This document shows, piece by piece, positions 1 through 57,656 of a stretch of 64,000 bases of DNA. The notes below the pieces were generated by a model. The model did no database searches. It saw only the letters and a list, made by a program, of their open reading frames with translations, and had not been told where the DNA came from. The stretch is from a virus (Duplodnaviria > Caudoviricetes), in the IMG/VR virus record IMGVR_UViG_3300033069_001378, positions 160,001-224,000 of that record. One strand, written 5' to 3'. Numbering within the stretch: position 1 is the stretch's first letter; every line of letters starts with the position of its first letter. The translations under genes were made by a program, and so were the position numbers.

Positions 1-1520
1 GTGCCTGTAACTTCATTTGGACAACTGACAATGGTACCAAATCCAATCAAGTCTCTTGTTGTGTTAACGTATGTTTGTTCTATTGGCTCGCCACCGCCAT
101 AATACCACGATTCCCATTGGTCTGCATCGGAGAAGTACGTTGGAATAGAAACTTCTTTGCTCCACTGTCCCACAAGTGAAGAGGTTCCCATTTGTTGCTC
201 TTGAGTTGTTATTGGGTTTTCTCTTTGAATATTGTAGCCAAATCTCGAGGTTTTTCTCTGAAGATTGAATGCGTATGTGTTTGGATCTGTGTATCTGAAG
301 CTTTGATTCTTCTTTTGATTCATGATGAACACAGTGTTCATTGCAACAGGAAAAATCAAACCCTCTTTTTGGTAGAAGTAGTTTGGCGTTGGTGAGCCTT
401 CAAAATCTCCAGGAATAATCAAATTTGGCATAGAAAAATCAACGCCAGATATTTGAATGACAATCTTCTCAACAAGAAACGGTTTGTTTATGAAGTCTTT
501 GAGTTTGATTGTTTGATCTGTGTTTGCCTGATATTGAGGACCATAAGGAAAAGCATAATTGCTCATTGGTTGAGCCATTTCTTGCATGTACTCAACATTG
601 TTGTATAGTAGACTGTTGGAGCAATAGGAAAGAAGAAGCTCATAACTTCTTGTTGTTGCCATCAACGATTGTGTGAAGTATGAGTTGATGAAAACGGAAC
701 CTGATGTTCCACCCTTAGACGTTGCCAACCCAAGTGGTGAGTAATTTACTGCAAATCCAGGACTAAACCCATATGTGCCACTGGCATACATGATTGAAGG
801 AGCAGCACCATACGCATCAATGATTGGCATAATCTGTCCACCAATCGGATCCCATTGATTACTGCCAAGATATACCATTGGTCTGTTTGCACCATGAACA
901 AGAACAGGGTAGTCTACATTCGTGTAATCATACACCTTATCGTAGCTGAATGATGACGAAGCTATGTTTTGCTTTACATCATCCTGATAGAATTGTTGTC
1001 TTATGGTATTTCCTGGGATAAATCCTCTGTTGATCTCGATAATATTCTTGGACCAGAGAGGTTGATCAAATCCACCTTCTCCAACCTTTGACTCAAGAGT
1101 GCCTGTGGCATAGAACGGATCATTTGTTGACTTACCGTCAGCAGCATGGCGATCAAAATCTCTAAATGGTTGTAGATTTTGCTGTGGCATTGTACCCATT
1201 GTCTTTTCAAGATAAGGGGTTATGTATTGGTCAGTTATGCTTGAGTTAACGCTTCCTGTTTCAATAAGGCTTGTGGTGTTCTCTGTGGTTATGTACTGAG
1301 TGTCAGAAACACGAAGACCCGTTCCAAGATATACGTCTACAGATGCAGTTGAGAAGATGAGTGGGGTTGTATCATCGAAAAAGGTATTGTAACCACCCTT
1401 TCTGTTATCAGCGGCAAGTCTTTGAATAGTCGGGAAGCTTCCGGTCGCAGCATCTCTTGCTGTCAACTGAAGTCTTGCTGGAATTCCCTTTATTCTAGAT
1501 AGTTTTTCGTTACGTGCCAT
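1..1520 (-). CDS. Large putative virion structural protein, partial (runs off the left edge)
   Basis: ATG at 1520, 5 nt after the stop of 1526..2416. Translated by hand: MARNEKLSRIKGIPARLQLTARDAATGSFPTIQRLAADNRKGGYNTFFDDTTPLIFSTAS... It is open for >60 codons but absent from the ORF track, consistent with no stop inside the window. Lies in the baseplate operon. Confidence 0.75.
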   Translation of the reverse strand, partial: MARNEKLSRIKGIPARLQLTARDAATGSFPTIQRLAADNRKGGYNTFFDDTTPLIFSTASVDVYLGTGLRVSDTQYITTENTTSLIETGSVNSSITDQYITPYLEKTMGTMPQQNLQPFRDFDRHAADGKSTNDPFYATGTLESKVGEGGFDQPLWSKNIIEINRGFIPGNTIRQQFYQDDVKQNIASSSFSYDKVYDYTNVDYPVLVHGANRPMVYLGSNQWDPIGGQIMPIIDAYGAAPSIMYASGTYGFSPGFAVNYSPLGLATSKGGTSGSVFINSYFTQSLMATTRSYELLLSYCSNSLLYNNVEYMQEMAQPMSNYAFPYGPQYQANTDQTIKLKDFINKPFLVEKIVIQISGVDFSMPNLIIPGDFEGSPTPNYFYQKEGLIFPVAMNTVFIMNQKKNQSFRYTDPNTYAFNLQRKTSRFGYNIQRENPITTQEQQMGTSSLVGQWSKEVSIPTYFSDADQWESWYYGGGEPIEQTYVNTTRDLIGFGTIVSCPNEVTG

Positions 1521-1525
1521 TTGAT

Positions 1526-2416
1526 TCAAGATCCTCTGTAGGTATTTGTGTATGCAAGACTATCGGTACCGTATCTTCTCATGTTTGGACCATATACCGT
1601 AGAACCTGCACTTGTTGAACGATAACCATACTCTTGTCTCAAATCTTCATCGAGATTCCAGTCCATAGAAGTGCTGTTCAAAAGGTTAATCAAATCGGTA
1701 TCTGTTGTACTGAGTAGGCTTGTTAAAGGCTGGTTTGGTCCATTGGACCTTGTGTCGTCAAACGGTCTTACCTTGTCTTTGTCAGAAGACATATAACCTG
1801 GGACCACTATCTTGTCACTTAGTTGTGCTCCGTCTCCAAAGTATGTTCCACCTTGGTCAAGAAAGAAGAAGTCACACTGTTCTTGTTGTTGATAGAAGTA
1901 TGGTTCTCTTTGATCTGCTTGGGCTCCGTAATCTATGAAGCCTCTTGGCATGTGAGCCATGTTCTTGACGTCTTCGTTTGTGTTCTTTCTGAAAGCAATC
2001 GTCAAAGGTTCAATAGATAGTTCTTCTTTCTGCTGTGGACCGTCATTGAAGATAAGTGGATATGGGTATGAGTCTCTTTCGTTGATGAATTGAATTGGGT
2101 CAAACTTCTTTAACTTATCGTCAAATGAAGTTCTTCCTGAGTATTCGACATAACTGTCAAACTGACCATATGTGTTAACTCTTGTAAAGCCACAGGTATT
2201 GCCCGACCAAATCTTTGGAGTGGTTCCAAGAGTTGTCATCTTGTTGGTTGTAATTTCTACACCCTGACGAAATCTGTCAATTTGGCTGGTGTTGATTCCA
2301 TTCGTTGTTACAGAACTGTTTTGTTGAACTCTTCCAATCCTTGATTGCTCATAGGCATCATTGAATGGAGTAAATCCATGTAGCTCTGTATCTGAATTGC
2401 TGCAAAAGTTCGACAT
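1526..2416 (-). CDS. Hypothetical protein, probably virion/baseplate-associated
   Basis: 296-aa ORF tightly packed in the baseplate operon; no recognisable motif. Confidence 0.7.
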   Translation of the reverse strand: MSNFCSNSDTELHGFTPFNDAYEQSRIGRVQQNSSVTTNGINTSQIDRFRQGVEITTNKMTTLGTTPKIWSGNTCGFTRVNTYGQFDSYVEYSGRTSFDDKLKKFDPIQFINERDSYPYPLIFNDGPQQKEELSIEPLTIAFRKNTNEDVKNMAHMPRGFIDYGAQADQREPYFYQQQEQCDFFFLDQGGTYFGDGAQLSDKIVVPGYMSSDKDKVRPFDDTRSNGPNQPLTSLLSTTDTDLINLLNSTSMDWNLDEDLRQEYGYRSTSAGSTVYGPNMRRYGTDSLAYTNTYRGS

Positions 2417-2424: not shown

Positions 2425-5400
2425 TCAGTAGCGGTTAACAATGCCTGTGATTAGTTGTAATAGAATTGTTGCCTTCAAGCCATTTCTATTTGTGTCTCCA
2501 AGGTAAATATCATCAGAATGGTATTGTACTTTTGGTCTAGACAATACGTTGTTTTCAACAATGAAGTTGGTTCCAGCGAATTTTGTCTTGTAAGGTAGCA
2601 ACTGGGAAACGAATGTTCCAATGTTTGTGTCAAACCACTTATAGAACTCAAAGAAGCCTTTGAGGTTAACCTTGTCAGTTAGTTTGTTGAAGTAGTTTTT
2701 CTTTATGACTTCAAGGTCCATGTATTGTGGAGCATAGAGAAGTTCTGGTGAACCAAGAGCGTTGTCAAACTCTTCCAACGAAGATAGAATGGTTATGATA
2801 TCCTGATTCAAGAAGTCCATGATTGAGAAGTCGATGGTGAACTTTGTGCTGTCAAATGGCTTCTCTGAGGGAGGGAGTTCATACATAGGAGCCGCTCCAG
2901 CCCAAGGCTCTGCATTCAAAAGATTGTCATACTCTTGGTATGAGCGAACTCTTACCTTTTCAACGGTGCTACCTTCGTCGAATCTTGGAGATAGGTACGA
3001 ATAATAAACTTGATGTGGAGAGAATACAATAGAGCTTGTTGCTGGAAACAAACTTCCTGTGAAGCTTATGTTGTTCTGTGAGAAGTCTGTTAGGAACAAA
3101 CCTCCATCAGCAGTAGTTGTCTCATTAACTTGGTCAACTTGAATTTCCATTCTAAGTCTATTCCATGAGCCTGTAGTAACGGTGTCAAAGTTCCAGTTTG
3201 TCTTTGGATCATTGACGCCAACAGAATGATAGTTTCTTACATGCTCTTGCCATTCGGTATTGTTTAGATTCTTTGACCAAAAACGAATTTGACTTAACTT
3301 TCCATCAAAGTCTGTGACTCTCAAGGAGTCAGGAACAACAACGGAATCGTTTAGGAAGACGCTTAGAGCACTTGTTTGAATTGATTGAGAACCGACGGTA
3401 AGATATGGGGCACTAGAAGTGACTGGAGCGAAATTCGCAACGTCAAATTGGTCTAGATTATAGAACTGCTCTATTTCATACCATGAAGAGGTGGAATATG
3501 ATTCATAGATTTCTCCATTGACATTCTTCGCTGCACGAAGGAAGAAAGAAGATGACGCAACAGAATTCAACTGGGCATATTCATCGTCATGCCTTACCTT
3601 GCCAACAGAGATGTACCAAGGATCTCCATTGGTCATATCAATCGACGGGATTGACATTCTTAGTGGTTGTGAATTTCCGGTAAAATCTGATCTATAGGCA
3701 AACTCAAGCTTTCTATCTTCATAGTTGTAAATCAAGTTTCCAAAAAACAACTGATCAACACCACCGCCAAGGCTTGTTGATGCAAACATTCTCATGAGAC
3801 TTTGTGATAAGACTTGAGAATATGGATTAAGCCTGTAAAGACCTTCATATGTCCATGAGCCAGAAGTCATCAATGAGTCGTTGGACGTGCCATCAGAGTA
3901 TGGCCAGCCTGGCTCAACCTTTGAGCAGCTTAGAGGCTTGCTCTCAATGAACCCACCGGAGATAAAGTCAACCATTGTCAAAACGTCAGAACGCTTGTCT
4001 CTTACCCATGTAAGGTTTCTGCTTGTTGGTCCACCATATTCTCTTATTCTGAAGTTGTTGTCTGGATCGATACCAACGGAGCGAAGATATGCCTTCACAG
4101 AATGGATGGTACCCTTGGAACGAAGAACGTCTTGCATGTTGATCAAAATTCTTCTCCAGATTTGGCTTTGAACGTTCTTCAAAGTCTCTGATGAAGTGCT
4201 GATGTTGCCTTCAATGTTTTCACCATCAAAATACTGTTCAAGAGAAGCATCTTGGAACAAGTAAGGAAGCTCAATGCCGGATTGTCTTGCGATATTCTGC
4301 AAGAATTCGTTTGGCGTGTTGTTCTTTGGATCGTAATCGACCCAATTCAAGTTTGAGAACTCTTGAATGTAGAGTTTTAGTTCATCGAAGTATTTTGCCC
4401 ATGTATACATGAGTAGAAGCATGGCTTGGGTTGCTCCAAGCTTTGCACTTCTTGGATCTGTGCCTGATTGAAGCATATCCACAATGCTCCCACCCTCTGT
4501 ATTCAGAATGTCGTCTTCAACGTTCTGAATGAGGTAATGTTTTGGAATTAATCTGGTGATTAGATTTGGATTTTGTTCGTCGAACTCAGCAGACTGGCTT
4601 ACAAGCGTTGTTCTTAGAGTTGTGGTATCATCATAGTCAGGAAATAGAACAGGATTGAGGAAAGACCTCTCGTAAGTCATTGGAGAAGTTCCGGCTATGG
4701 AAGCTGTTGAAATGTTTCTAACACCAAGGAGATATCCTGTAGATGATAGTCTTCCGTGAACAGAGTTGCTTGAGTAATCAACAACAACGTCTGAGTTGAT
4801 GTTTGCTGGTTCGTTGAAACGGTAGTAAAGCTTTAGATGGCTATCGGCAAATACATTCTTTGCTGCATATTGCTGGAGATCAGACGCACTTCTTGGCTCA
4901 TTCCAGATTCTAAGTTCGTCAATGGCTCCAGAGAAGGTTGTGTTTGGAGTGAAGAGAGTTCCAAGGTTTGAACCAGAGCCAATAAGCAAATCGGTTGTGT
5001 CACAAGAGAGATATCCAAATTCCTTTGTTGAAAGGGTTTGGTTTACAAGCTGTTCGTTGAGATATCCGTAAATCTTGCCAACGCCAGGAGTTCTATCCCA
5101 TACGAAAGCAACGTGATTCCATTGACCTTTCAAAATAGGCATTGTAAGGCTATCCACAAGGGTTCCAGACACTAGATAGAAGCCAAGATTGGCTCCAGAG
5201 CTTCCACCGTCAGATTCCAAACTAACGTAGTAACCAACATCGTTCAAATGCTTATCTATAACCGCTGTAGAGTCGTTTGCTTGAGCAGGGACATAGACTT
5301 GCATCTCAATGGTTAGAGAGTCGTCACCGGGATTTAGAATCGATTGACCGCTCTTATTGGAAGACATTCCAGGATACGCAGAACCAGCAATGTCCTTAAC

Positions 5401-5823
5401 GGAAACATAGGTTCCACCATAACCCTCAGAAGCCTGAGTTCCTGAGAAGAAGAGATAGCCTTTGTTCTTTGGGAAATTATCATAAACATACTTTTCAAAA
5501 CCTGTAAGTTGGTCAAGGAATATGTTTGTGTCCTTTTGAGATCCGTTAAATGGGAAATCATTAAGGATTCTATCAAAGGCTACGTTTGTTTTTACCTGGG
5601 CAGAGTTGAAGAATGTGTGTTGAGAGAAGTCAGACCAGTCAATGTTCAACTGTTGAGTTGACAACAACCCAGATCCCTCTGGGTTTGTTCTGAAAGAGCT
5701 TGTGCTGTCAAAGTCATAGCTCTTCAATGCATCTGCATCGACCTTTTTGACATAGTTTGGCGCAAACAAACGCAATGAGTTTGCTTGGGACGTGCTATAA
5801 CCATTTTTTCCGAATATTGTCAT
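2425..5823 (-). CDS. Baseplate/tail structural protein with LamG (ConA-like) domains
   Basis: LamG signatures GQWNHVAFVWD, FSGAIDELRIWN, LKLYYRFNE, and a second copy FDGKLSQIRFWS. LRSKGTIHSVKAYLRSVG resembles the KGT motif of baseplate wedge gp7/tail-I-like proteins. Start moved from TTG 5832 to ATG 5823. Confidence 0.75.
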   Translation of the reverse strand: MTIFGKNGYSTSQANSLRLFAPNYVKKVDADALKSYDFDSTSSFRTNPEGSGLLSTQQLNIDWSDFSQHTFFNSAQVKTNVAFDRILNDFPFNGSQKDTNIFLDQLTGFEKYVYDNFPKNKGYLFFSGTQASEGYGGTYVSVKDIAGSAYPGMSSNKSGQSILNPGDDSLTIEMQVYVPAQANDSTAVIDKHLNDVGYYVSLESDGGSSGANLGFYLVSGTLVDSLTMPILKGQWNHVAFVWDRTPGVGKIYGYLNEQLVNQTLSTKEFGYLSCDTTDLLIGSGSNLGTLFTPNTTFSGAIDELRIWNEPRSASDLQQYAAKNVFADSHLKLYYRFNEPANINSDVVVDYSSNSVHGRLSSTGYLLGVRNISTASIAGTSPMTYERSFLNPVLFPDYDDTTTLRTTLVSQSAEFDEQNPNLITRLIPKHYLIQNVEDDILNTEGGSIVDMLQSGTDPRSAKLGATQAMLLLMYTWAKYFDELKLYIQEFSNLNWVDYDPKNNTPNEFLQNIARQSGIELPYLFQDASLEQYFDGENIEGNISTSSETLKNVQSQIWRRILINMQDVLRSKGTIHSVKAYLRSVGIDPDNNFRIREYGGPTSRNLTWVRDKRSDVLTMVDFISGGFIESKPLSCSKVEPGWPYSDGTSNDSLMTSGSWTYEGLYRLNPYSQVLSQSLMRMFASTSLGGGVDQLFFGNLIYNYEDRKLEFAYRSDFTGNSQPLRMSIPSIDMTNGDPWYISVGKVRHDDEYAQLNSVASSSFFLRAAKNVNGEIYESYSTSSWYEIEQFYNLDQFDVANFAPVTSSAPYLTVGSQSIQTSALSVFLNDSVVVPDSLRVTDFDGKLSQIRFWSKNLNNTEWQEHVRNYHSVGVNDPKTNWNFDTVTTGSWNRLRMEIQVDQVNETTTADGGLFLTDFSQNNISFTGSLFPATSSIVFSPHQVYYSYLSPRFDEGSTVEKVRVRSYQEYDNLLNAEPWAGAAPMYELPPSEKPFDSTKFTIDFSIMDFLNQDIITILSSLEEFDNALGSPELLYAPQYMDLEVIKKNYFNKLTDKVNLKGFFEFYKWFDTNIGTFVSQLLPYKTKFAGTNFIVENNVLSRPKVQYHSDDIYLGDTNRNGLKATILLQLITGIVNRY

Positions 5824-5824
5824 G

Positions 5825-7471
5825 CTACTCAACTACTTTGAATCTAAAACCAGGGTTCTCAATATAGGTATCTTTGCCAGTGGAATCTGAGCGTATTAGA
5901 AAGTCTATTTGATAAACAATGTTGACTTCTAAGTCCCCTGGCCAAATATCAAAGAACATTCCTTCGTGATCAAAAGATAGTCTTGTAGCGTCTTCGTGAT
6001 ATGGGATAACCTCGATGTTCTCGTAAGCTTTTCGAAGTCTCCAGTACATGTTTGGAATGATTACAGACTGTGATTGTGTATATGTCTTGTAAGCTTTCAT
6101 ATCTGCGTCATAATTCTGAACAAAGACTCTTAGCCTCACCTGATCGCCAGATTGATACTCTTGTCTTAGGTTCGTTATGTTGGCAACAATATTTCTGTCT
6201 GTAACGTTTGAGAAGGTTCCAAATCTGTATTCAAAAGTCTCGTAAAGAGCAGCATAAGTGATTGAACTATCGAGACTCTTCCATGAAACCTTGAACTCAT
6301 GACTTGATGCCCCAGACAAGAAAGCCTTGAGACTTGAAGTCATATCTGGGTCAATTACGAATGTTGACTTATAGATACCAGTCTGACTATTTTCACCAAT
6401 CACATGCTGCGATCCAATGAATGATGCTGTGAACACATCAAGTGATCTTGTTTTATGTGTGATTGAAGCACTGTGAGAGATACTCCAGCTTTGGGTGAAG
6501 TATTCAACGCTATGAGAAGCAGCAAGTTCCAAAGTCAAACAGTTTGCTCCAGAGACTACAGACGAACCAGAGGTAAAGTTAGCATAGTTTCCATAATCGT
6601 TCTTGTTGTAAATGTAGAATGTCTGTGGAGCAGAACTGAAATTGGACAAAGCTGTTTGATCTTCGATTCTTTCGCCAGAATATCTGATATGAAGCTTTGG
6701 CTTTAGGTCATCGTTGTAAGCGTGACGAGTTCCAAAACGCTTAACGAAGTACGTTGTGTCTGAGTTTTCTTCTTGAGCTGTGTATGAGACTCTAAATCCG
6801 TTGTTAGGCAAAATACCAGCTACGGAAGCAGAAACAAGTTGGGTAATGTCTACCCAAAGGTCTTCATCTCCTCTTCTGAAGAACTGAGAGGTTTTGAGGG
6901 ATTGATTTCCAGAGCCAATATTTCCAGAAACCCAAACGTCTACATCTGTACCATCCGTTAAAGAACCAGAAGCATTTGCTCCTTCAAGTGACCAAGTTAC
7001 ATAGGTAGAGTTGACGACAGAGGCAGTTAGGAAATTGCAAACGTCGAGTTGTCTGTATGAAATAACATCAGAGCCTCTTCCTTCATTCCAGTCTTTTGCC
7101 AATGGAATGATTTCAACTGTGTAGTTTGAAGGAACGGTCTGACCACCGTAAATATCTTTCATCGACATGTAAGCTTTGAAAGAAGAATCATTCATGTCGA
7201 GGACGCTTGAAGTTAAAGAAGTAAGTTGCGAATAATCAAATTTGATGAGCAATCTAGAGACTTCTCTTACAGGATCATAGGTTCCTGTATTGTAAATCAT
7301 AACTCCACTTACAATTGAGCCAGTATTTGAAGTTGGAACGTAAGTTTCAGCATATAGACTGTAAAGATCAAGGGTTCCCGCTTGTCCTGTATTTGCGTCA
7401 GTGCAACGGACTCCTTTGATGTACTTGTTTTGAATGTAAGCGTCTTGAGACGCAGATAGTAGACGATACAT
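5825..7471 (-). CDS. Putative structural protein with DNRLRE/CBM96-like N-terminal domain
   Basis: ASQDAYIQ...SRLLIKFD...DWNEG...W pattern of DNRLRE-like beta-sandwich domains; directly downstream of the baseplate wedge gene. Confidence 0.55.
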   Translation of the reverse strand: MYRLLSASQDAYIQNKYIKGVRCTDANTGQAGTLDLYSLYAETYVPTSNTGSIVSGVMIYNTGTYDPVREVSRLLIKFDYSQLTSLTSSVLDMNDSSFKAYMSMKDIYGGQTVPSNYTVEIIPLAKDWNEGRGSDVISYRQLDVCNFLTASVVNSTYVTWSLEGANASGSLTDGTDVDVWVSGNIGSGNQSLKTSQFFRRGDEDLWVDITQLVSASVAGILPNNGFRVSYTAQEENSDTTYFVKRFGTRHAYNDDLKPKLHIRYSGERIEDQTALSNFSSAPQTFYIYNKNDYGNYANFTSGSSVVSGANCLTLELAASHSVEYFTQSWSISHSASITHKTRSLDVFTASFIGSQHVIGENSQTGIYKSTFVIDPDMTSSLKAFLSGASSHEFKVSWKSLDSSITYAALYETFEYRFGTFSNVTDRNIVANITNLRQEYQSGDQVRLRVFVQNYDADMKAYKTYTQSQSVIIPNMYWRLRKAYENIEVIPYHEDATRLSFDHEGMFFDIWPGDLEVNIVYQIDFLIRSDSTGKDTYIENPGFRFKVVE

Positions 7472-7505: not shown

Positions 7506-9371
7506 TCAAACTATCATTCCAACAATGTCAAAGTCGAGGTATCTTATTTCGAAGATTCCTCCTATTGGCGGAAATACTATTCCTTTGTTTGTGTTTCCAT
7601 TCACATCAAACTGAACGTCCGAATACAATCTTGTATCTCCTGGTCCAGAAGCGGTAGCGTTAGAAGCTCCTGTGAGATTTGTAATGTTGATATCTGGAAC
7701 GGAGATTACACCTTGACTGTTGTAGATCAGGTTATTGATATCGGAACGAATAAGAGGTTGGTCGATTTGAAAGGCTCTTGTTGCAAAGAAGTTTTTGATA
7801 GATGATATAACGGTTCCAAGAACTGCGTTCTTGTTCATGTTTGGATCTGCCACAATTGAGAAGGTGATCTTCAAATTGATGACCTTTGCATCCAAGATAT
7901 CAATCGCATCAGAAATCAATCTGTATTCATTGAGGTATCTTGCAAGATTCTTCTTCAAGGTATCTGGAGATACGATGAGTTTGTTGCTTGGATCTCTAGA
8001 AATCACATAAAGCTGTGAAGCAAGAGGGTTATTTGGATTTGAATGGATAGCTGCTCTATAGACTCTTCCAAAATCTGATGGCATTGTGTAAATTCTTGAA
8101 ATCAAATCTGGTTTGCTTACAATTCTTCCTTGAGCATTTGAGTATTGTGGAATCTGTGCCCTTAGTTGGTCTATGGTAGGAGCATCCTCTCCTCCAGAAG
8201 CGTTTTTGTTATTGATTGTGCTGATACTGTTACGAACGAACTGTGCTGTTGAAACCGTTGGCTCGCCTGGGAATGCGATTTGAATGTTGGTAACGTTCTT
8301 GATAGAGTTGGCTGCGACGTTGTGACTCAGACCACCACCATAACGATATTGAATGGTTAGAGTTGAGTTTGGAACAACTGTACCAAGGGTTGTGGTTTGA
8401 AGCATGTTATTTGGATTGATTGTGAATCTTGAAACAACTCTCTTGCCGTAGAGTGGAACGGAAAACTGCGATGGATCTGGAAGAATGTCGTCGTTGAGAG
8501 TCTCAGATGATCCTCCACCGAAAGTCAAAGTGGTTAGCTTCGTGTTTACGTCCATTCTTTTCACAAATCTGTAGGGAGCAGGAGTTGGAATGAAGTTTTC
8601 CTTTACGATCTCCTTGTCATAGCTAAGATTTGGAAGTGCCTTGTATACAGTATCTTGAGTTAGGAATTCAACCTCGAAATATTCGTTTCCAAGATTGTCT
8701 GTAGCACGAATGATGCTTGAAACGTTTGGTTGTCCAAGTGTGAACTGCGTAAATGCCTTAAAAGCTCCAAAGCTAAGAGTTTCCGAAGCGAGAAGACCAG
8801 AGATGCAGTCTCCGTTCAAGGAAACGTAGTATGAGGTTGGATTGCTCTGAGCATCTCTTCTGCCAACTTCGTAACTTGCTTTGAACTTGCCTGTAGAGTC
8901 TGTTGCGGAAAAGTCCAGATCATCAACAAGCTGAAATTGGACACCATTGGTTGAAGTTACTGTTGTTCCTGCAAATAGCTTTGGCATTGCTGTTGCATCA
9001 GGCTTTGTTCTGTCAGCAGGATCAACGGGTATTTCAAAAGTGAAGGTTTGGCTAACAACTGCTGGAGAAGAGCCTACGATTGGTACGCTAGAACGTTCAA
9101 GGTGTCTCTGAATGTTTCTTGGTTCAACTGCCAAGAGAGGATCGAGTTCAAAGAACTGATGGTCTAGATAAAACGACGTTACGTCACCAATGTATGCAGG
9201 CATATCCATTAGAAGACCACTGAATGATGCATCAGAGTCATCTACAGGAGTATCTGGAAAGAAAGTACGCTTATACGTTAACAGATCAGCTCTAAAGCTA
9301 TCAAAATCCTTGTTTAGATAGCTTCTTTCTTTTACTCTCTTGAGAACTTCTCTTTTAGATTCGTTTGACAT
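7506..9371 (-). CDS. Baseplate wedge subunit (T4 gp6 / baseplate J-like)
   Basis: YLNKDFDSFRADL, AYIGDVTSFYLD, YRYGGG, ASGGEDAPTIDQLR...AQGRIVSKPD are typical gp6/J motifs; follows a gp25-like gene. Confidence 0.88.
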   Translation of the reverse strand: MSNESKREVLKRVKERSYLNKDFDSFRADLLTYKRTFFPDTPVDDSDASFSGLLMDMPAYIGDVTSFYLDHQFFELDPLLAVEPRNIQRHLERSSVPIVGSSPAVVSQTFTFEIPVDPADRTKPDATAMPKLFAGTTVTSTNGVQFQLVDDLDFSATDSTGKFKASYEVGRRDAQSNPTSYYVSLNGDCISGLLASETLSFGAFKAFTQFTLGQPNVSSIIRATDNLGNEYFEVEFLTQDTVYKALPNLSYDKEIVKENFIPTPAPYRFVKRMDVNTKLTTLTFGGGSSETLNDDILPDPSQFSVPLYGKRVVSRFTINPNNMLQTTTLGTVVPNSTLTIQYRYGGGLSHNVAANSIKNVTNIQIAFPGEPTVSTAQFVRNSISTINNKNASGGEDAPTIDQLRAQIPQYSNAQGRIVSKPDLISRIYTMPSDFGRVYRAAIHSNPNNPLASQLYVISRDPSNKLIVSPDTLKKNLARYLNEYRLISDAIDILDAKVINLKITFSIVADPNMNKNAVLGTVISSIKNFFATRAFQIDQPLIRSDINNLIYNSQGVISVPDINITNLTGASNATASGPGDTRLYSDVQFDVNGNTNKGIVFPPIGGIFEIRYLDFDIVGMIV

Positions 9372-46912: not shown

Positions 46913-46913
46913 G

Positions 46914-46941: not shown

Positions 46942-46993
46942 CATAATGATTTCTGAAACCATATTTTCTGTGCCATAAGCACAGCAACAAGAA

Positions 46994-48387: not shown

Positions 48388-48942
48388 TTACAATATCGAC
48401 CAATAGCTACCAAAGTTAAATAGCTGGACACTTTGATAATTCACCAGCAGATTATACTTATTTCTCCCGTCAATTAGATTACCATTGCCATCTATCGTGT
48501 ATGCATGAGAAGACGCATTTCCTGCTACGTCTTTGATTATCAACAGCCTGCCATTTTGATATATCGTTGGAGACGGAAGAATGATTGAAGTGGCAACAGA
48601 AGACGAAATGCCTATAATATAGTCAGAATCGAGAACACCATAAGAAGATGCTGTCACAACCGTTGGTGTTGAATAGACGGCTTGCCTAACAAACATCGAA
48701 CCAGAGATAGCAACGTCACCACCAAAAACAGAAGTGCCTTTGACGTTCCTTCGCATCGAGTTAGAAGAGCCAGATACGAATAAAAAGGTATCCCTTTGGC
48801 TTATTTGTGCAACAACGGTAGAATCGGTAATGGCACCAGCGGTGCCTGCCACGTCAATGCTATAAACAGCAAGACTGCCAACCGAACTTGTGACAATAAT
48901 CTTTCCTGTTTGTATCTGGCTGGCACGAAAATCTGCGGACAT
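48388..48942 (-). CDS. Short fibre-family structural protein
   Basis: N-terminal DFRASQIQT shared with the 871-aa fibre; FLFVSGS...VFGGDV; C-terminal GRLLIIKD...IDG...NYQS. Confidence 0.75.
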   Translation of the reverse strand: MSADFRASQIQTGKIIVTSSVGSLAVYSIDVAGTAGAITDSTVVAQISQRDTFLFVSGSSNSMRRNVKGTSVFGGDVAISGSMFVRQAVYSTPTVVTASSYGVLDSDYIIGISSSVATSIILPSPTIYQNGRLLIIKDVAGNASSHAYTIDGNGNLIDGRNKYNLLVNYQSVQLFNFGSYWSIL

Positions 48943-49043: not shown

Positions 49044-51659
49044 TTAGTTTGATATTACACCCCAAGTTACGTTTGAAGCCGCTGTATCGAAACAGGTTAA
49101 GGTTACTCTTCCATAGCTTTGCGAAATGACATAGGTTGCAGCAGAGTCAATCTTTCCATAACTTGCAGACACGGTTATGTTGTTGGAAGCAGCCGAACCA
49201 CCCACGTCCTTGATTACAAAAGCCCTTCCAAGCCTCGCAGCAGCACTGTCTAGGATAACTGTCCTTGTGCCACCTGCGGAGTTTACAGGGATTATGTAAT
49301 CGCTTCCGCTAACTGTATACGTTGTCGTCTTGGCAACGGGAATATGGTTAAACACAGAACCAGATAAGTACAATCCGTTTGAAGCCGAAACCACAACGCT
49401 GAATCCTGTGGAACCACTTCCACGTCCACCAATCATGATTTGTTGAGGAAGACTTGCTGTCAATCCAGAACCAATCAAAATAGAACCAGACATTCCACTT
49501 GGAATGCTATTGAACTTTCCTCCAATGACAACAGACATTGGAGAACCTATGATTGAAGATGTTGCAGAGGTTAGGATTGATGAGTCCCAAGAGCCAGATA
49601 TTTGATTATATCCACCACCGACAACTACAGCGTTTCTCGTCATTCCATATATCTTGTTGGCAGTACCAACAATTATTGCGTTTTGACCATCGGCAGCGGG
49701 GTCTGAGCCAGACAATACGTTTACATTGCCACCAAGAATAACAGAGCTTCCATTAGAAATTAGACTGTTTGAAGAACCAGCAAACACGGCATTATAGTTT
49801 CCATCAGTAATACTGTTGCTTGTACCTCCACCAATTATGTTGTAGGCTGCGCCGTTTATTCCACCTGAAATAACTGGAAAGCTTGTGCCTATAACAGCAG
49901 ATTGCTGTGTTGTTCCAAAATAACGAGCAGTATCGGTTCCCAAACATACGTTTAAGAATCCATTGTTTAGTTGACAGTCATATGCCGCAATTGCAGCAGA
50001 ATGTGAAGAACCACTAAGAATGTTGTTTCTTCCGGCAACTACAGCCGAGTAGGTTGCCTGAAAAGCACCGACACCAGCTAATGTGTTTGAACTACCAGCA
50101 ACAACTGCCATGTATCCATAGCCGTTCGTATTGTCACTAAGATCGTTCAATTGTCCAGCGACAACAGCACTCTTCTTTGTTCTTGTAAATGTGTTTGAGT
50201 AGCCTGCGACAACCGCTGTTTCCGAACTGTCATTCACATTGTTTGACAAAGAAGCAACTGCCGCAGAGTCAGTGGATCCAGAAATAGAGTTATTTGATCC
50301 TCCAAGAATGCTGGAGTTGTACGAGATTGTAACTCTGTTGTTCTCGCCAGAAAGAACGGAAGACTTGTAAGAGTTAGAAACTACGTTTGCATTTCCACCA
50401 ATGACCACGTTTCCGTCTTGAGAACTTCCATTGTTTACTTCGTTGTTGGAGCCTCCAAGAATAGCGGCATTTGATTGCGAACCACTGATTCTGTTTCCAA
50501 TACCACCAGCAATAAGCGAAGTAGTTGTATAGCCAATTGCGCTTCCGCTTGTTGCAAGCATCATGCTTACATGAGCATCGTTCATGTGAACTTCTTTTGC
50601 AGAAACAATGGCATTTGAACCGTAGTTAAAATCTGATGAACTTACACTTGAATTAATTGCAGAAGCGACCAATGTTCTGTATGCTGGTCCAAGAATCTGT
50701 ACGTTATCTGAGTTTAGAAGACTTGAATATCTTGTTTCAAGAAGAGAACCATTAGTTGTGCTTGCAATGAAGCACTCCTCGGAAAAAAGAGATTCGTTGA
50801 AGCTACCACCAGCAATAACTGTAGAGTATCCGATTGTTGGAGCTGAATAGTCTAGTTTTATTGTGTTTGTGTAACCGCCTAGTATTGCAACTCCACCGTT
50901 GGCAGCAGCCAAATCCAAATCAGAACCAGTTATGACGCAGTTTACAGTTCCAAGTGCTAATCCGTTCAACATGTTTTTTACAGTTGTTGAATCGCAGCCC
51001 AAAATTGCGGAATAAACAGAGTCGTTTATTGTGTTGTTCGTTCCAGCAGCTAATAATGTAGAAAATGATCCGTAATTTGTAGAGTTAGTATTGTTTCCAC
51101 GTCCCGCAAGACTGACGTTGTTGTCAGAACCAGAGATTCCATTTGGTCCAGCGTCCTGAAGACTTTTCTGTATTATGTTTCCACCAAAAAATGCGTCGCC
51201 TTGGATTGTGACAAATTTTGAGTTGTCATATTTTGATCCAGAAACGTAGAAGTTTGTGCTTGGATCGATATTCTCAGCAAATACAGAGTCAGAGCCGATT
51301 GCAACAGAAGCCGTAGTTCTCAATCTAGGGGAAGTAGAACTTTCAACCCATTGCTGAGTTCCTCCCCCGTTTGAGGTTATGCTTCCTGAAACATGAACGT
51401 CTCCACCAAATACTGTGATAGAGCGGTTGTTCGTATTCTTTTCGCCAATGCCACCAGACACAAACAAGAAGATATCTTTGCCGTTTAAAGAGCCTGTATT
51501 GAAGGCATTTTGATTGATTACTCCTGTGTTGTTTGGAGTCCCCTGTGCTTCAATTGGGTAAATAACAAGCTTAGCACCTGTGCCATCTTTTCCAAGTGTT
51601 CCAGATGCTATTATCTGCTTTGTTTGAATTTGAGTTGCTCTATAATCATTTGTTGTCAT
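49044..51659 (-). CDS. Tail-fibre/adhesin-like protein with beta-helix repeats
   Basis: DYRATQIQT N-terminus, PRLRTTAS module, S-x-I/V-x-GG-x-x-N repeats, C-terminal GRAFVIKD...ID domain. Confidence 0.78.
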   Translation of the reverse strand: MTTNDYRATQIQTKQIIASGTLGKDGTGAKLVIYPIEAQGTPNNTGVINQNAFNTGSLNGKDIFLFVSGGIGEKNTNNRSITVFGGDVHVSGSITSNGGGTQQWVESSTSPRLRTTASVAIGSDSVFAENIDPSTNFYVSGSKYDNSKFVTIQGDAFFGGNIIQKSLQDAGPNGISGSDNNVSLAGRGNNTNSTNYGSFSTLLAAGTNNTINDSVYSAILGCDSTTVKNMLNGLALGTVNCVITGSDLDLAAANGGVAILGGYTNTIKLDYSAPTIGYSTVIAGGSFNESLFSEECFIASTTNGSLLETRYSSLLNSDNVQILGPAYRTLVASAINSSVSSSDFNYGSNAIVSAKEVHMNDAHVSMMLATSGSAIGYTTTSLIAGGIGNRISGSQSNAAILGGSNNEVNNGSSQDGNVVIGGNANVVSNSYKSSVLSGENNRVTISYNSSILGGSNNSISGSTDSAAVASLSNNVNDSSETAVVAGYSNTFTRTKKSAVVAGQLNDLSDNTNGYGYMAVVAGSSNTLAGVGAFQATYSAVVAGRNNILSGSSHSAAIAAYDCQLNNGFLNVCLGTDTARYFGTTQQSAVIGTSFPVISGGINGAAYNIIGGGTSNSITDGNYNAVFAGSSNSLISNGSSVILGGNVNVLSGSDPAADGQNAIIVGTANKIYGMTRNAVVVGGGYNQISGSWDSSILTSATSSIIGSPMSVVIGGKFNSIPSGMSGSILIGSGLTASLPQQIMIGGRGSGSTGFSVVVSASNGLYLSGSVFNHIPVAKTTTYTVSGSDYIIPVNSAGGTRTVILDSAAARLGRAFVIKDVGGSAASNNITVSASYGKIDSAATYVISQSYGRVTLTCFDTAASNVTWGVISN

Positions 51660-51732: not shown

Positions 51733-52467
51733 TCAAACTATTTGAGCAATGAAGTGGAACCAGTTCACATATTGGGCAGAAATGCTTCCAGAAGCGTTTG
51801 TTGTAGAAGTTGTTGCCTGATAAAAAGATACGTTTGATAGTCCATTGTCAACAGTATCCCAAGGCGTGTCATAGAAGTAAGTTGGAACCGCAGGTAGAGT
51901 TGCATACGTCGTATTGAACGTCTCACCACTTGCATTTACCTTGCCTGCTGACGCAGTTATAGCAATTGAGGCTGAAGCTGGCTCTGAACTTGTGACAATT
52001 GTTGGATAAGAAGGAGCCCAAATTGCTCTGTATCTAATTGTTCCGCTAAACGGAGCACTTGTTCGAACTGTTAGCTCTGTTGGATCATAAACAACTCCGA
52101 AGATATTCACATTTCCAAGGTTGTCATAGGCATCTTCCATAGACAAAACAATGTATGGATCCCCTGAGAACGAGAAGTTGAATACAGCAGTTGATTCATC
52201 CGTCATGGAATCGAAGTAGATAAGTCCTTCATCATATTCGCCAAACGAGTATGAAATAGGGCTTGTTACAATCTCAACAACAAACCCAGGCTTTACCTCA
52301 AAGTAATCTCTATGCCTTATGGTTGACTGCAAGTCAATTGAATATGTGATATGTGTAGCTGGATCTGCGATTGTTGCTATTTGTGGTCTTGGAGGCACAC
52401 CATATCCAGCGACCTTTCTCCAAAGGTTTCTGTTGGTTCCATATTTCTTGTCGTTATTAGATGCCAT
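51733..52467 (-). CDS. Hypothetical structural protein, paralog of 56862..57656
   Basis: Shared WRKVxGYG, TIRHRDYFEVK, GEYDEG, IRYRAIW, TASAG. Confidence 0.75.
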   Translation of the reverse strand: MASNNDKKYGTNRNLWRKVAGYGVPPRPQIATIADPATHITYSIDLQSTIRHRDYFEVKPGFVVEIVTSPISYSFGEYDEGLIYFDSMTDESTAVFNFSFSGDPYIVLSMEDAYDNLGNVNIFGVVYDPTELTVRTSAPFSGTIRYRAIWAPSYPTIVTSSEPASASIAITASAGKVNASGETFNTTYATLPAVPTYFYDTPWDTVDNGLSNVSFYQATTSTTNASGSISAQYVNWFHFIAQIV

Positions 52468-52795: not shown

Positions 52796-54115
52796 TCACA
52801 AGCTATAATCTGTGATTGTAAAGTTGATTCCATCGCGAGTAAGATTTGAACCTGGCGAGTTACTGCCGCTCCATGGTGTAGATGCCATCTGATTGGATGT
52901 AACTGCCGTACCACCAAAGACCGCTCTTAAACCATCTGCTCGAACATCGTGAGTCTGCAAACCTACAACGGATCTAAGTAATGGAGTATTTAGATATCCA
53001 GCCATTCCGTTGAAGTTAGGCTCGCCAGCGGAAATAACCATCAATGCCTTTTCGTCATAAACAGATCCAGAATTGATCAACTTGTTTGGACTATATGTTG
53101 TTGTATTGAAGTTGCTGTAGCTCAATTGAAGAACTCTTACTCCGTTGTTTGTTTGTGCAAACACTCCACCCTCTCTTGTAGCTGCCGTAGCCGTAGCTGT
53201 TCCAAGACCAACTTCGTGAGGTATTGTTGTGGTTGTTGAAAACACACTAGAATCAGAGCTTTCTGCCCTGGAGCCAAACGACAAGAAACCTTTTGAACCA
53301 CTTATTCCAAGAACTTTTCCTGGGTTTGATTGAGATATGGCGTCAATCATTGAGTATGGACCATAAAATGTGATATTATACGTTGTCAACAAAGCAGGAG
53401 TTGTACCGTTTGCAAAAGCCACGTCTTGTAGCATCAAAAAGCTATCTCCGTCTGAAAAGAAGTGTGCTCTCGCTTTCACTTGTGTCTTAGCCGCTCCTGT
53501 TGCTAATCTTGTTGACTGTTGCATACATTGCCTATTTGTAGCAAATGTGCCGCTTGTATTATTGATTCTTGGAAATACGTGAACAGAACTTCCGGGACTG
53601 GATCCTGATGCCCACACTATTGCTCCTTTTGCTCCGGTACCTGTAGTATTAACAGAACCGCTCCATGGCGTGATTGAATTGCCGCTCGCATCAAGAGCAA
53701 AAGCTCCTGCTGTTAGAAAGCAATATGCGTTTATTGCGCTTGCGTTATCTTCCGTTCTTACAGGCAATGATTGCGCAGCAGCAGAGTCAAGCGCGTTGGC
53801 ACCAGATGTGCATTGCAACATCAAATACCAATCCCAAGATCTTCCAGTTGCAGCATTTGGTTTAAATCTCCAAACCGAAAAAGGATAGTTTCCAAATCTA
53901 GAAGCTTGGTCCCAATAACCAACACCAAAAGTACCACCAGAGGTCATTGTACCAGAGTACATCGTGTAAAGTTCCGTGACTCCAGCAGTCTCAAGATATT
54001 GCATGAACTTATAGGCTTGAACGTAAGTTTCATTCACCAATCTTGCATCTGACGTACCAGCCGCACCAAGAATATCACTGTAGCAGTCTATTTTTCCATA
54101 TATTGTAGTTGTCAT
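52796..54115 (-). CDS. Hypothetical structural protein (fibre-associated)
   Basis: 439 aa, S/T/G/A-rich, SGS/SGT motifs; AGGTAGG Shine-Dalgarno-like sequence upstream. Confidence 0.7.
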   Translation of the reverse strand: MTTTIYGKIDCYSDILGAAGTSDARLVNETYVQAYKFMQYLETAGVTELYTMYSGTMTSGGTFGVGYWDQASRFGNYPFSVWRFKPNAATGRSWDWYLMLQCTSGANALDSAAAQSLPVRTEDNASAINAYCFLTAGAFALDASGNSITPWSGSVNTTGTGAKGAIVWASGSSPGSSVHVFPRINNTSGTFATNRQCMQQSTRLATGAAKTQVKARAHFFSDGDSFLMLQDVAFANGTTPALLTTYNITFYGPYSMIDAISQSNPGKVLGISGSKGFLSFGSRAESSDSSVFSTTTTIPHEVGLGTATATAATREGGVFAQTNNGVRVLQLSYSNFNTTTYSPNKLINSGSVYDEKALMVISAGEPNFNGMAGYLNTPLLRSVVGLQTHDVRADGLRAVFGGTAVTSNQMASTPWSGSNSPGSNLTRDGINFTITDYSL

Positions 54116-54138: not shown

Positions 54139-56847
54139 TCACGTTCCTACAATTTCGGAACCATAATGAAATGTTAAATGTATGCTTCCACTTCCATAAT
54201 ACTGAAGTTCGTAGATTGAAGCAGAAGAAGAGTTGAAGTTTGTTGCACCATAGAGATTAACAGATTCTAGAAAGCTTGGAGTTGTATTGCTGGTTGTTAA
54301 CACAGTTACGCCAATTCCTCCAATATGGACATAAGTTCCTGATGTTACATTATACATTTGAACGAATGCTTTATCTGACCCAGTGCTTGTTGCGAGAATC
54401 GTTCTTAGCGCATAAGAAGATTTTGTTGATTCATTTGGAACGAAATATGTGCTTCCAACTGTCTTTGGATTGCTAGAAGTTACGGCTGAGCTATCATAGC
54501 TTCCTATGTATTGATGAGTTACAGGACTCGTTCCAGCACTTGATGAAATTGCGTAAGAGCCACTAACTTGGTTTATTGTTATGTTGTCTCCAGCAAGAAG
54601 GCTTGCACTTATTGCAATGCTATTTCCTGCTCCATAATCTACAACTGCTATGCCTGGTCCTGAACTAAGAACTCTGTCGTTTGAAAGCCCTGGATCTAAA
54701 GAGACAACAATGTATGAAGCACTTGTGGAAGCAAAAGAAGAAGGCAAGTTATCAAGCTTTAGCTTGTCTGCCGAACTCATGGCACCATCGGAACTTGTTG
54801 TCGCGTTGATAATGCTTATGTTTGGAGTAAGTCCATTGCTTGACGTAAGTGGAGCTGTTGCGGTTACAGATGAAACAAAGCTGCCAGAGACTCCTCCGCT
54901 CGAAGAGATGGCATAAGCATTTCCAACTTGATTGATTGTGATATTGTCGCCTGCCAATAGCTGTGCAGACAAAACAACATTTCCATTTGGTCCGCCATCG
55001 CTCATGGAAATACCAGTGCCAATGGTTAAAACTCTTTCGTTGGTTAAAGTGCCATCGGTTGACAATGTAACATAGGAGGCACTCGTGCTTGTGTAGTCAC
55101 TTGGAAGTCCATCAAGCTTGCTCTTGTCAGGAGCACTCATATAGCCACCAGCAGTCGTTGTAGCGGCAGGAAGAGTTATGTTTGGACTCTGACCCGCACT
55201 AGCTGTCAAAGGGCTTGTAGCGGTTACAGTAATCACTGACGCACTAACAGAAATGGAATCAAGTTTTTCCTTATCTGTTTTTGACATATAGCCACCAGCG
55301 GTGATTGATGCCACTGGAATGCTGATTAAAGGAAATTGACCTGCGGAGCTTGTGAGAGGTGCGCTAGCACTTACAGCTATTACAAATGTTCCCTGTGAAG
55401 CTGAGATTGCATAGGAATTGCCGACTTGATTTATGGTAACGTTGTCCCCTGCCAATAGAGAGGAAGATATAGCAACTGTTGAGCCCGCACCATAATCACT
55501 AATTGCAATTCCTGGTCCTGCTGCAAGAGCACGCTCATTTGGAAGCGATGAAGTTGTGCTGATAACAATGTATGAAGCACTTACGTCTGCTGCAACAACT
55601 GTTGCAGGAAAGCTTGCACTTATTGCCAGTTCATTTCCAACTTGGTTAATTGTAACGTTTGTACCTGCTAGCAAAGACGCGGAAATGGCAACATTTGAAT
55701 TGGCACCATAATCGTTTAATGACAACCCTGGTCCAACTACAAGAACTCTTTCACTTGTTAGAGTTGTATCTGTTGTCAAGGTGACATAGGAAGCACTTGT
55801 GCTTACGTATCCACTTGGAAGATTATCGATTTTGGTTTTGTCTGCTGCGCTAAGTGTTCCCGCACTTGCAGTTGTTGCTGGAGAGATAGAAATTACAGGT
55901 GTAGCTCCACCAGAACTTGTGATTGGCGAAGTAGCAGAAACGGAGCTAACAAAGCTACCCTGTGAAGCAGAAATTGCTAAAGAGTTTCCAACCTGATTTA
56001 TGGTGACATTATCACCAGCAAGAAGGCTTGCACTTACTCTGACGTTTGAGTTCGCTCCATAGTCTGTGATTGTAATTCCCGGACCTGAGCCCAATACTCT
56101 TTCATTCGAGAGAGTTGAATCCAGTGCAAGAGTTACGTATGAGCTACTTGTGCTGGAAAAGCTTGTTGGAAGGTTGTCAAGTTTTGACTTATCTGCTGCT
56201 GACATAACACCAGCAGCGGAAATCGAAGCTGTACTTATGGAAAGGGTTGGAGTCAATCCTCCGCTTGAGGTTATTGGAGCTACAACGGCAATTGAGCTAA
56301 CAAAGCTTCCTTGAGAAGAAGAAATCGCGTAGCTGTTTCCAACCTGATTGATTGTTACGTTTGTACCAGCAAGTATGGAAGAAGAGATTGTGAAAGAAGA
56401 ACCAGCACCACCGTCAACAAAGCCTATTCCAACTCCTGCCGTTATCACTCTTTCATTTGCAAGAGAAGAAGTGGCAGATAGAACAAGATAAGAAGCACTT
56501 GAATCAGCCCAAACAACAGAAGAAGTAGGAGAAGTGCTTGAAGATACGGTCGATGAAATGGTTAATGAACCGCCAGAATTGGAGAAGCTTATTCCTGTTC
56601 CTGCTCTTATGATTCTTTGATTTGGCAAGGCACTGTCAGAAACGACAAGAAAACTTGCCGACATAAGACTTCCAGAAGTGGTTCCATCTGCAAGTCCTTG
56701 CTGTTGAGCCATTTCATAGATGGCTTGCGCTCCAGTGTTCCATTCACCAGCGGGTAGAACACCCGTTGAGTACAAGATGACGTTTTGGTCTACCTTGTTG
56801 GCACCCAAACTTCCAGACGTTCTTGTTGGTAATGACGTTAATCCCAT
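54139..56847 (-). CDS. Repeat-rich tail-fibre shaft protein
   Basis: Six full copies of a ~62-aa unit (SASY..L...L.NERVL..GPGI...DYGA...ISASLLAG.N.TINQV) and five G.(M/L)S..DK.K(L/I)D units typical of phage fibre shafts. Confidence 0.8.
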   Translation of the reverse strand: MGLTSLPTRTSGSLGANKVDQNVILYSTGVLPAGEWNTGAQAIYEMAQQQGLADGTTSGSLMSASFLVVSDSALPNQRIIRAGTGISFSNSGGSLTISSTVSSSTSPTSSVVWADSSASYLVLSATSSLANERVITAGVGIGFVDGGAGSSFTISSSILAGTNVTINQVGNSYAISSSQGSFVSSIAVVAPITSSGGLTPTLSISTASISAAGVMSAADKSKLDNLPTSFSSTSSSYVTLALDSTLSNERVLGSGPGITITDYGANSNVRVSASLLAGDNVTINQVGNSLAISASQGSFVSSVSATSPITSSGGATPVISISPATTASAGTLSAADKTKIDNLPSGYVSTSASYVTLTTDTTLTSERVLVVGPGLSLNDYGANSNVAISASLLAGTNVTINQVGNELAISASFPATVVAADVSASYIVISTTSSLPNERALAAGPGIAISDYGAGSTVAISSSLLAGDNVTINQVGNSYAISASQGTFVIAVSASAPLTSSAGQFPLISIPVASITAGGYMSKTDKEKLDSISVSASVITVTATSPLTASAGQSPNITLPAATTTAGGYMSAPDKSKLDGLPSDYTSTSASYVTLSTDGTLTNERVLTIGTGISMSDGGPNGNVVLSAQLLAGDNITINQVGNAYAISSSGGVSGSFVSSVTATAPLTSSNGLTPNISIINATTSSDGAMSSADKLKLDNLPSSFASTSASYIVVSLDPGLSNDRVLSSGPGIAVVDYGAGNSIAISASLLAGDNITINQVSGSYAISSSAGTSPVTHQYIGSYDSSAVTSSNPKTVGSTYFVPNESTKSSYALRTILATSTGSDKAFVQMYNVTSGTYVHIGGIGVTVLTTSNTTPSFLESVNLYGATNFNSSSASIYELQYYGSGSIHLTFHYGSEIVGT

Positions 56848-56861
56848 GTGATCTTACCTAA

Positions 56862-57656
56862 TTAGGTTCCAAAACTAAATCCGAAGGTATAAGTAAATCC
56901 GCTTCCAGAGCTTGTGATTGGAGCAGAGACTCCATCATAGACAATGAAATGAATGTCATGATTCTTTGGAGCAGAAACATCGGCAATAAAATAGCTGTTT
57001 GTTAGGAATACGTCCTCGACAAAAACATCTGAATACAGATTTGCTGAATCCCACGCACTCTCAAGAGCAAAGTCTGGCTGAGATAGCATCGTTCCAAAGG
57101 TTTGATAATAATACGTAACGTTTGAAGGGTTTGAGGTACCTGCTGAAGCTGTGAAGTACGATGTTGTAAACGTACTGGACACAATGGCTGGATAAGATGA
57201 TGCCCAAATTGCTCTATACCTTATGTTGCCACTGTACGGAGCAGATACACCAATATACGCACCCGTTGATGCATATGTGATACCGTATGTGTTTATGTTT
57301 GACATATCGTCATTGCTATCAACAGTCAAAACAACATAAGGGTTTCCTGAAAACGTAAAGTTGAAGTTGAAATACTTCGCGTCACCATCTGAATAATCAA
57401 ACGTGATCACTCCTTCGTCATACTCTCCAACAGGAAAGGGAACAGGAGTAGGGTTTGGAGGAATTACACCCGAGACAACAAACTGCTTCTTGACTTCAAA
57501 GTAGTCTCTGTGTCTTATCGTCTCTTGTTCGTTGTAAGTGAACGATTGGCTGTTGGCAAGATCAACATACGTGTCATAAACAGGTTTAGGTTGCGGACCA
57601 TAGCCCACAACCTTTCTCCATACGTGCTTATTGCGTTTGTTTTCAGAATCAGCCAT
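56862..57656 (-). CDS. Hypothetical structural protein, paralog of 51733..52467
   Basis: Same shared blocks as its paralog; first gene of the fibre cluster. Confidence 0.75.
   Translation of the reverse strand: MADSENKRNKHVWRKVVGYGPQPKPVYDTYVDLANSQSFTYNEQETIRHRDYFEVKKQFVVSGVIPPNPTPVPFPVGEYDEGVITFDYSDGDAKYFNFNFTFSGNPYVVLTVDSNDDMSNINTYGITYASTGAYIGVSAPYSGNIRYRAIWASSYPAIVSSTFTTSYFTASAGTSNPSNVTYYYQTFGTMLSQPDFALESAWDSANLYSDVFVEDVFLTNSYFIADVSAPKNHDIHFIVYDGVSAPITSSGSGFTYTFGFSFGT

Follow-up and report, generated by a model that had tools for sequence, protein, structure and literature searches.

A short serine/threonine motif on the outer virion proteins of Far-T4-like phages, probably the attachment site of a phage-made sugar coat

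The stretch of DNA analysed here (64,000 nucleotides; hereafter the window) comprises bases 160001-224000 of the linear virus record IMGVR_UViG_3300033069_001378, which is 252.5 kb long and, according to CheckV, ~66% complete. It encodes baseplate-operon proteins, an island of glycan genes whose last two members are the tandem glycosyltransferase (GT) genes GT500 and GT402, and a series of fibre and fibre-region proteins (Table 1); the Gp23 capsid gene and two sheath genes are present in this genome outside the window. Our subject is a tripeptide, [ST][GAS]S, that recurs in the outer virion proteins, and its relation to the GT pair. Among 50,697 phage records, the best sheath matches of this genome were Mel-JY01 (Microcystis), LR756508 (uncultured), immuto (Flavobacterium) and RM378 (Rhodothermus), the last being the Far-T4 reference phage (PMC4360716). 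The genome has a Gp23 match, and its sheath groups with RM378 and not with T4 or the cyanophages, as expected of a Far-T4 member: in the sheath tree, this genome, immuto, Mel-JY01 and RM378 fall together at 96/94, apart from T4, B23 and S-SKS1, with RM378 on a long branch.

Motif counts were compared with whole-protein shuffles unless another null is named; shuffles within 20-residue windows and shuffles preserving odd/even positions or dipeptides served as further nulls. Thirteen outer proteins, several of them unannotated and assigned to this class by operon position and by their orthologues in immuto and Mel-JY01, together hold 191 sites, against 90.6 expected from whole-protein, 91.9 from 20-residue-window, 93.7 from odd/even and 105.1 from dipeptide shuffles, and the highest single shuffle reached 130. 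About half of the raw motif count is composition. A sequence-only reading of the window had pointed to the motif and suggested a comparison with shuffles; the outer proteins exceed all four nulls, and the tetrapeptides it listed were all found (10/10 in 5825..7471, 6/6 in 2425..5832 and 3/3 in 51733..52467). The excess has a direction, with 75 T[GAS]S against 35 S[GAS]T in the outer proteins (p=1.7e-4), and hydrophobic residues occupy positions -1 and +1. The signal is carried by SGS, SAS, TGS and TAS; TSS is weaker and S-S-S is at chance (25 versus 24), so the pattern as first written stands for glycine and alanine at its centre and fails for the all-serine form. Neither N-x-S/T nor D-x-S signals are clearly enriched in the outer proteins of this genome.

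The sequence-only reading had set structural proteins against enzymes, in which it judged the motif rare. The true split is between outer virion proteins and everything else, because the wedge protein (7506..9371) has 1 site versus 2.1 expected and the 13 inner/core virion proteins are at chance, with 20 versus 21. Capsid, neck and sheaths show a weaker excess (22 versus 10-14) that some shuffles reach. The glycan island is also at chance for [ST][GAS]S (13 versus 9-13), and rarity there is limited to a mildly low count of [ST][GA]S (2 versus ~6); other enzymes have 2 sites versus 4 expected. Repeat expansion alone, which the sequence-only reading had thought insufficient, can be rejected as the cause: 152 of 190 sites have distinct flanks (flank clusters), and the three non-repetitive baseplate-operon proteins alone hold 30 sites versus 11-16 expected.

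Table 1. Features of the window, with observed and expected [ST][GAS]S sites where counted.
Feature	Coordinates	Strand	Observation
Baseplate-operon protein, 943 aa, 5' part only (runs off window)	1..1529	-	8 sites vs 3.4
LamG-domain baseplate-operon protein	2425..5832	-	12 sites vs 4.8
548-aa beta-sandwich protein, CBM96-like look-alikes, directly after wedge gene	5825..7471	-	10 sites vs 3.2
Baseplate wedge (gp6/J-like), internal negative control	7506..9371	-	1 site vs 2.1
GT402, core GT4/GT-B enzyme, second gene of pair	14654..15862	-	found in motif-positive relatives, not found in either motif-negative genome
GT500, core GT4/GT-B enzyme, first gene of pair	15859..17361	-	4-nt overlap with GT402
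Predicted docking strand of GT500 (residues 435-444) onto GT402 strand 257-263	16030..16059	-	complex model
Variable glycan cassette	17457..34051	-	candidate chain extension; mostly not common to immuto or Mel-JY01
Weak homologue (31.5 bits) of small GT-A of immuto, Mel-JY01 and RM378; alternative priming candidate	33032..34051	-	
SO2946-like C-terminal-domain protein	39563..40330	-	5 sites vs 1.4
Fibre-like protein, 2217 aa, no family match	40337..46990	-	60 sites vs 30.6
Fibre-like protein	46994..48355	-	15 sites vs 5.6
Fibre-region protein	48388..48942	-	5 sites vs 2.1
Fibre-like protein	49044..51659	-	21 sites vs 11.4
Fibre-region protein	51733..52467	-	4 sites vs 1.3
Fibre-region protein	52796..54115	-	5 sites vs 3.4, alone not significant
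Tail fibre (PHROG 26758 and 19567)	54139..56847	-	42 sites vs 21.2
Fibre-region protein	56862..57656	-	3 sites vs 1.4, alone not significant

The family of the 548-aa protein shows that the motif is selected at the protein level, as a unit. In 120 homologues it occurs 1242 times versus 326 expected, with the same direction in each form (TGS/SGT 224/74, TAS/SAT 182/36, TSS/SST 184/24), and at least six sites are present in 125 of 150 representatives clustered at 50% identity. Many alignment columns toggle between S and T, followed by G, A or S and then by a fixed S, and within the motif constraint is strongest at the last Ser. Across 114 representatives (35% mean identity), [ST][GA]S is 1.47-fold over its column-wise expectation, compared with 0.45-1.23 for control triplets. 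At eight polymorphic sites, 67-92% of the sequences with both leading residues retain the final Ser, compared with 9-30% of the remaining sequences, a difference that relatedness inflates somewhat. The sites are spread over 100 different alignment columns, and individual sites have therefore been gained and lost. At each site Ser is encoded from both of its codon boxes, which excludes a DNA-level cause; a DNA-level motif is likewise rejected by the codons at the motif positions, which are fully degenerate and match background. In the AlphaFold model of the 548-aa protein (pLDDT 88), motif sites are distributed over strands, loops and one helix, and a fold search with this model returned generic beta-sandwich matches and nothing more specific. 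Direction, triplet unity and codon use thus bear out the claim that unrelated outer virion proteins carry a short linear motif under selection. The accompanying claim of convergent selection in this phage gives way to a clade-wide inherited trait whose individual sites come and go.

The motif is confined to outer proteins and specific to the clade of Far-T4-like phages, whose motif-bearing members include the cultivated immuto, Mel-JY01 and RM378 (the last with a shifted T-x-S form). Both immuto and Mel-JY01 carry it in the sheath, the baseplate periphery and the fibres, and not in tube, portal, terminase, hub or tape measure. Orthologue-matched outer proteins have 34 sites versus 10.0 expected in immuto, 45 versus 8.7 in Mel-JY01, 57 versus 10.8 in the relative G021 and 27 versus 9.5 in this genome, and inner proteins have 0-3 versus 2-3. 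No [ST][GA]S excess was found in the structural regions of T4, B23, S-SKS1, NCTB and HSE3 (0.37-1.26 times expected).

Several further observations concern these phages and their repeats. The tail-sheath genes are tandem paralogues encoding ~1000 aa each, both motif-bearing (L007; G000:69058-72045 and 72128-75160), and this duplication is common to a jumbo sub-clade. Mel-JY01, reported from Microcystis, and Flavobacterium phage immuto share gene order and have core proteins that are 35-55% identical (NC_055915, PP395634), a likeness for which the host assignment of Mel-JY01 may deserve a check. Long S-x-T repeat tracts, with 79 S-x-T and 52 S[GA]T copies, are present in Mel-JY01 (635-3052; L273) and at L299; they resemble the tracts of serine-rich-repeat adhesins, and both phages carry the GT pair. 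The cyanophages B23 and S-SKS1 (L294, L295) are enriched in G-I-x-T over 8-9 structural-region proteins (29 versus 5.3 and 16 versus 4.4), possibly another lineage-specific tag.

GT500 and GT402 are the only strong GT orthologues common to this genome and immuto. Among cultivated phage records, strong matches were limited to Mel-JY01, immuto, LR756508 and RM378 for GT500, and to immuto and Mel-JY01 for GT402. The two genes are in tandem in 71 of the 74 loci with room to see both, and 14 further GT402-bearing contigs have a 2.2-3.6 times excess of [ST][GA]S over 20 kb of their structural region; the co-occurrence count leaves out G033:C55 and G036:C6. Upstream of the pair, the variable cassette contains genes for Gmd, a Fcl-like protein, epimerases, a SIS isomerase, a GHMP kinase, a nucleotidyltransferase, methyltransferases and GT2 and GT4 enzymes. 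The whole island was rejected as the partner of the motif, as it is not common to the motif-positive phages. The sequence-only reading had nominated the adjacent GT island as the modifier; what comparison among the phages supports is a tie to one conserved tandem pair at its end, not to the island as a whole.

Both proteins of the pair have generic GT4 family matches (PF00534, PF13692), a GT-B fold and the GT4 signature, and both keep an EG[FY]G-type motif. The GT402 model (pLDDT 95) has GT4 enzymes as its best structural matches, the nearest being chlorovirus B736L (PDB 3oy2; Z 31.0, rmsd 3.1, 346 aligned residues, 15% identity), with the next entry 1.7 Z lower. The two proteins are predicted to form a heterodimer: the complex model has a binding score of 0.82 (best control 0.00), at least 74% contact agreement between runs and a partner pLDDT of at least 87. 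Of 80 solved complexes, 58 attained the mark set for the score, as did 2 of 110 mismatched pairs. In this model, the GT402 strand at 257-263 pairs with residues 435-444 of GT500, a segment that is conserved in paired copies. Three partnerless GT500 copies end 59-68 aa past a conserved landmark, compared with 74-137 aa for 48 others, and therefore lack the docking strand.

Variants of the pair were also seen. GT500 is split in two open reading frames (190 and 302 aa), either truly or through a sequencing error, in Mel-JY01 (L175, 29441-30932) and likewise at L375, and GT402 is fused to extra domains at L316 and L319 (a 1041-aa open reading frame) and L392 (705 aa). At L388 (9833-11215) and L389 (3-1442), GT500 homologues have neither a GT402 partner nor the docking strand; they lie on contigs filed as metagenome-assembled genomes of Lysobacterales (1.38 Mb) and Burkholderiaceae, respectively, and are possibly bacterial captures. 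Directly downstream of the pair are two conserved genes with no Pfam or PHROG match (window 13351..14657), and the 250-aa gene downstream of the pair has orthologues in immuto, Mel-JY01, G021, LR756508 and G041. Elsewhere, on the opposite strand, 60391..61848 (+) encodes a divergent chaperonin-like protein (PHROG 5725 groEL, E 4e-11) with zero motif sites; a canonical GroEL is also encoded, at G000:97994-99727.

Comparison of relatives suggests that the motif has been lost or altered where the GT pair has been lost or altered, once as a loss and once as a shift. The loss concerns 13 sheaths around LR756508, which make up a clade (100/100) nested among motif-positive sheaths (nearest enclosing node 93/89). 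Twelve of these sheaths together have 19 sites versus 15.3 expected, compared with 515 versus 213.5 in the other 108 sheaths. In LR756508 (484 kb, searched whole) GT402 was not found and GT500 is truncated, without the docking strand; a scan for close relatives of its GT found none. The enzyme-like genes common to this genome, immuto and Mel-JY01 but missed in LR756508 are GT402, a small GT-A and PhoH, the rest being structural or unannotated. In G041 (263 kb, CheckV 100%) neither GT500 nor GT402 was found, the polymerase and PD-(D/E)XK block being kept, and its outer orthologues have 5 sites versus 3.9. The shift is seen in RM378, which has a tandem pair whose GT402 orthologue is the unannotated Rm378p014 (20% identity); orthology was taken from the pairwise match (E 3e-7) and shared motifs, the profile score being set aside since RM378 was in the profile. 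In 11 Ser/Thr-rich RM378 proteins (L109, L176, L177), T-x-S occurs 152 times versus 53.6 expected, compared with 63 versus 53.6 for S-x-T and 85 versus 71 for S-x-S, and this T-x-S takes almost any middle residue, bulky ones included.

We propose, with a probability of about 0.6, that (hydrophobic)-[S/T]-[G/A/(S)]-S-(hydrophobic) marks sites of O-glycosylation primed by GT500-GT402 as a GtfA/GtfB-like pair, the motif probably being the attachment site of a phage-made sugar coat. Acting in the host cytoplasm, the heterodimer would read the tripeptide on the outer proteins of Far-T4-like aquatic myophages, namely on the sheath, neck, peripheral baseplate and fibres, and add a first sugar to one hydroxyl, with the last Ser as either the acceptor or the recognition hydroxyl. 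The variable cassette would provide nucleotide sugars and lengthen the chain to form a coat particular to each phage. The first addition may precede folding of the protein, since some sites are within strands and a helix. We infer that the pair acts on protein and that the motif is its acceptor, as we infer the choice of hydroxyl and the role of the coat. The odds are about even for the wider picture, in which sequon-directed O-glycosylation would operate in a large aquatic myophage clade: the heterodimer would prime, the signal would evolve together with the enzyme (loosened in RM378, where it becomes T-x-S, and gone along with the enzyme in one sub-clade), and an exchangeable cassette would determine the glycan 'serotype'.

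A number of observations weigh against this proposal. A single clade has both the motif and the GT pair as ancestral traits, and so their co-occurrence, for which the sequence-only reading had suggested a check against GT orthologues, does track GT500-GT402 but rests on two independent contrasts. LR756508 retains a weak residue of the motif (9 sites versus 4.5). G021 is very motif-rich with no GT pair on its contig, where the pair block is probably missing from the assembly because the replicative polymerase and the PD-(D/E)XK neighbour are missing as well; conversely, G038 has the pair and a sheath with only 2 sites versus 1.3, although the sheath's neighbours have 6 versus 1.3 and 5 versus 1.9 and its baseplate region is off the contig. 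In the fold search with GT402, GtfA trails at Z 19.7 behind B736L, and the fold is therefore no proof of a protein acceptor. Finally, in immuto, Mel-JY01 and RM378 the pair sits among replication genes, which would fit a DNA or small-molecule acceptor too.

The alternative that survives best, though an unlikely one, is that nothing reads the motif: it would reflect an inherited amphipathic design of beta-strands and turns, with two hydroxyls on one face and the small residue turned inward. Ordinary beta-strand alternation would account for the hydrophobic flanks, which to that extent count against a glycosylation signal. The outer proteins are beta-rich, S[GA]T is also ~2.7 times enriched in the 548-aa family, and the motif-negative clade is more acidic and poorer in Ser/Thr overall, a further point against our proposal. 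However, a structural habit would not predict an excess that is directional and survives odd/even- and dipeptide-preserving shuffles, nor sites in a helix and in loops. Moreover, the beta-rich outer proteins of five other myophages show no such excess, G041 and LR756508 have orthologous folds that manage without the motif, and RM378 places bulky residues at the middle position.

It is somewhat less probable still that the motif is a glycosylation signal primed by another enzyme (the small GT-A, a GT of the variable island or a host enzyme), with the pair extending the chain or modifying DNA, as its position beside replication genes in several genomes would allow. The small GT-A is conserved in immuto, Mel-JY01 and RM378 and at 30 of 37 GT loci, and neither LR756508 nor G041 yielded one; its homologue in this genome is nevertheless weak, and none was found at three GT loci of large jumbo-type contigs (L386, L392, L393). 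The GTs of the variable island are not common to motif-positive phages, and the reported hosts differ (Flavobacterium, Microcystis, Rhodothermus). As for DNA as the substrate, GTs of the T4 AGT/BGT type go with a base-hydroxylating enzyme (dCMP hydroxymethylase, or 5mYOX plus a C5-methylase); no thymidylate-synthase-type base modifier (PF00303) was found in this genome, which is ~66% complete and in which 5mYOX was not searched for. DNA GT structures rank low in the GT402 fold search (1y6f, Z 19.1; 9iqz, Z 20.1). Least probable is a reader that is not a GT at all (another modifying enzyme, a chaperone or a decoration protein), the link to the pair being shared ancestry, which the all-or-none triplet and the single loss event would suit but which fits poorly with GT402, the small GT-A and PhoH as the only enzyme-like candidates missed in LR756508 and with the coincidence of motif shift and GT divergence in RM378.

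The proposed O-glycosylation by GT500-GT402 would work like that of GtfA/GtfB, the priming complex of serine-rich-repeat adhesins (reviewed in PMC6973325), by analogy and not as a member of that system. There too, a cytoplasmic two-protein GT complex is conserved where the extending GTs vary, and acceptor serines alternate with small residues (PMC6973325). The adjacency of GT genes whose products form a complex has its counterpart in the tandem arrangement and predicted binding of the phage pair. Unlike GtfA/GtfB, the phage pair has no DUF1975 match, Pfam and NCBIfam giving generic GT4 only; the EG[FY]G-type motif is kept in both subunits, and GtfA is not the nearest fold. In GtfA/GtfB, GlcNAc is transferred to Ser/Thr and one of the two subunits is a chaperone without catalytic activity. 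The phage sites are dispersed in folded virion proteins with no repeat tract, and no accessory Sec genes (SecA2/Y2) are among the annotated neighbours. B736L of chlorovirus NY-2A resembles GT402 as a viral GT4 enzyme, at the low identity given above; to our knowledge, its acceptor has not been established. Heptosyltransferases of the TibC/Aah autotransporter type glycosylate serines of beta-rich surface proteins in the cytoplasm. The phage island similarly has SIS, GHMP-kinase and nucleotidyltransferase genes of heptose-pathway type, although TIGR04414 (TibC/Aah) had no match among the ten island proteins scanned, GT500 and GT402 included.

Among phages, virion glycosylation by phage GTs is known from mycobacteriophages, where the glycans are C-terminal on capsid and tail-tube subunits (Freeman et al. 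2023, as summarised in PMC12619734). Phage-encoded GTs would be the source of glycans on particle proteins in the present case as well. The present candidate sites differ in being many and internal, on sheath, neck, baseplate and fibres, with the tube free of them; the summary in PMC12619734 gives no sequon. The moraphages have four core putative GT groups, for which DNA and virion glycosylation were both left possible (PMC12619734). In a word search of the texts, an acceptor motif is not described in PMC12619734 or PMC4360716, and literature searches aimed at the motif or at these phages found no paper describing the motif or the GT pair.

Large phages often carry GT islands of unknown target, be it DNA, the host surface or the particle. 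The present analysis names a candidate acceptor signal together with a candidate two-subunit priming enzyme. If the proposal is true, it would provide a readable sequon for the glycosylation of phage particles and a cytoplasmic O-glycosylation enzyme with a three-residue tag, and heavily glycosylated tails would be predicted across a widespread aquatic clade.

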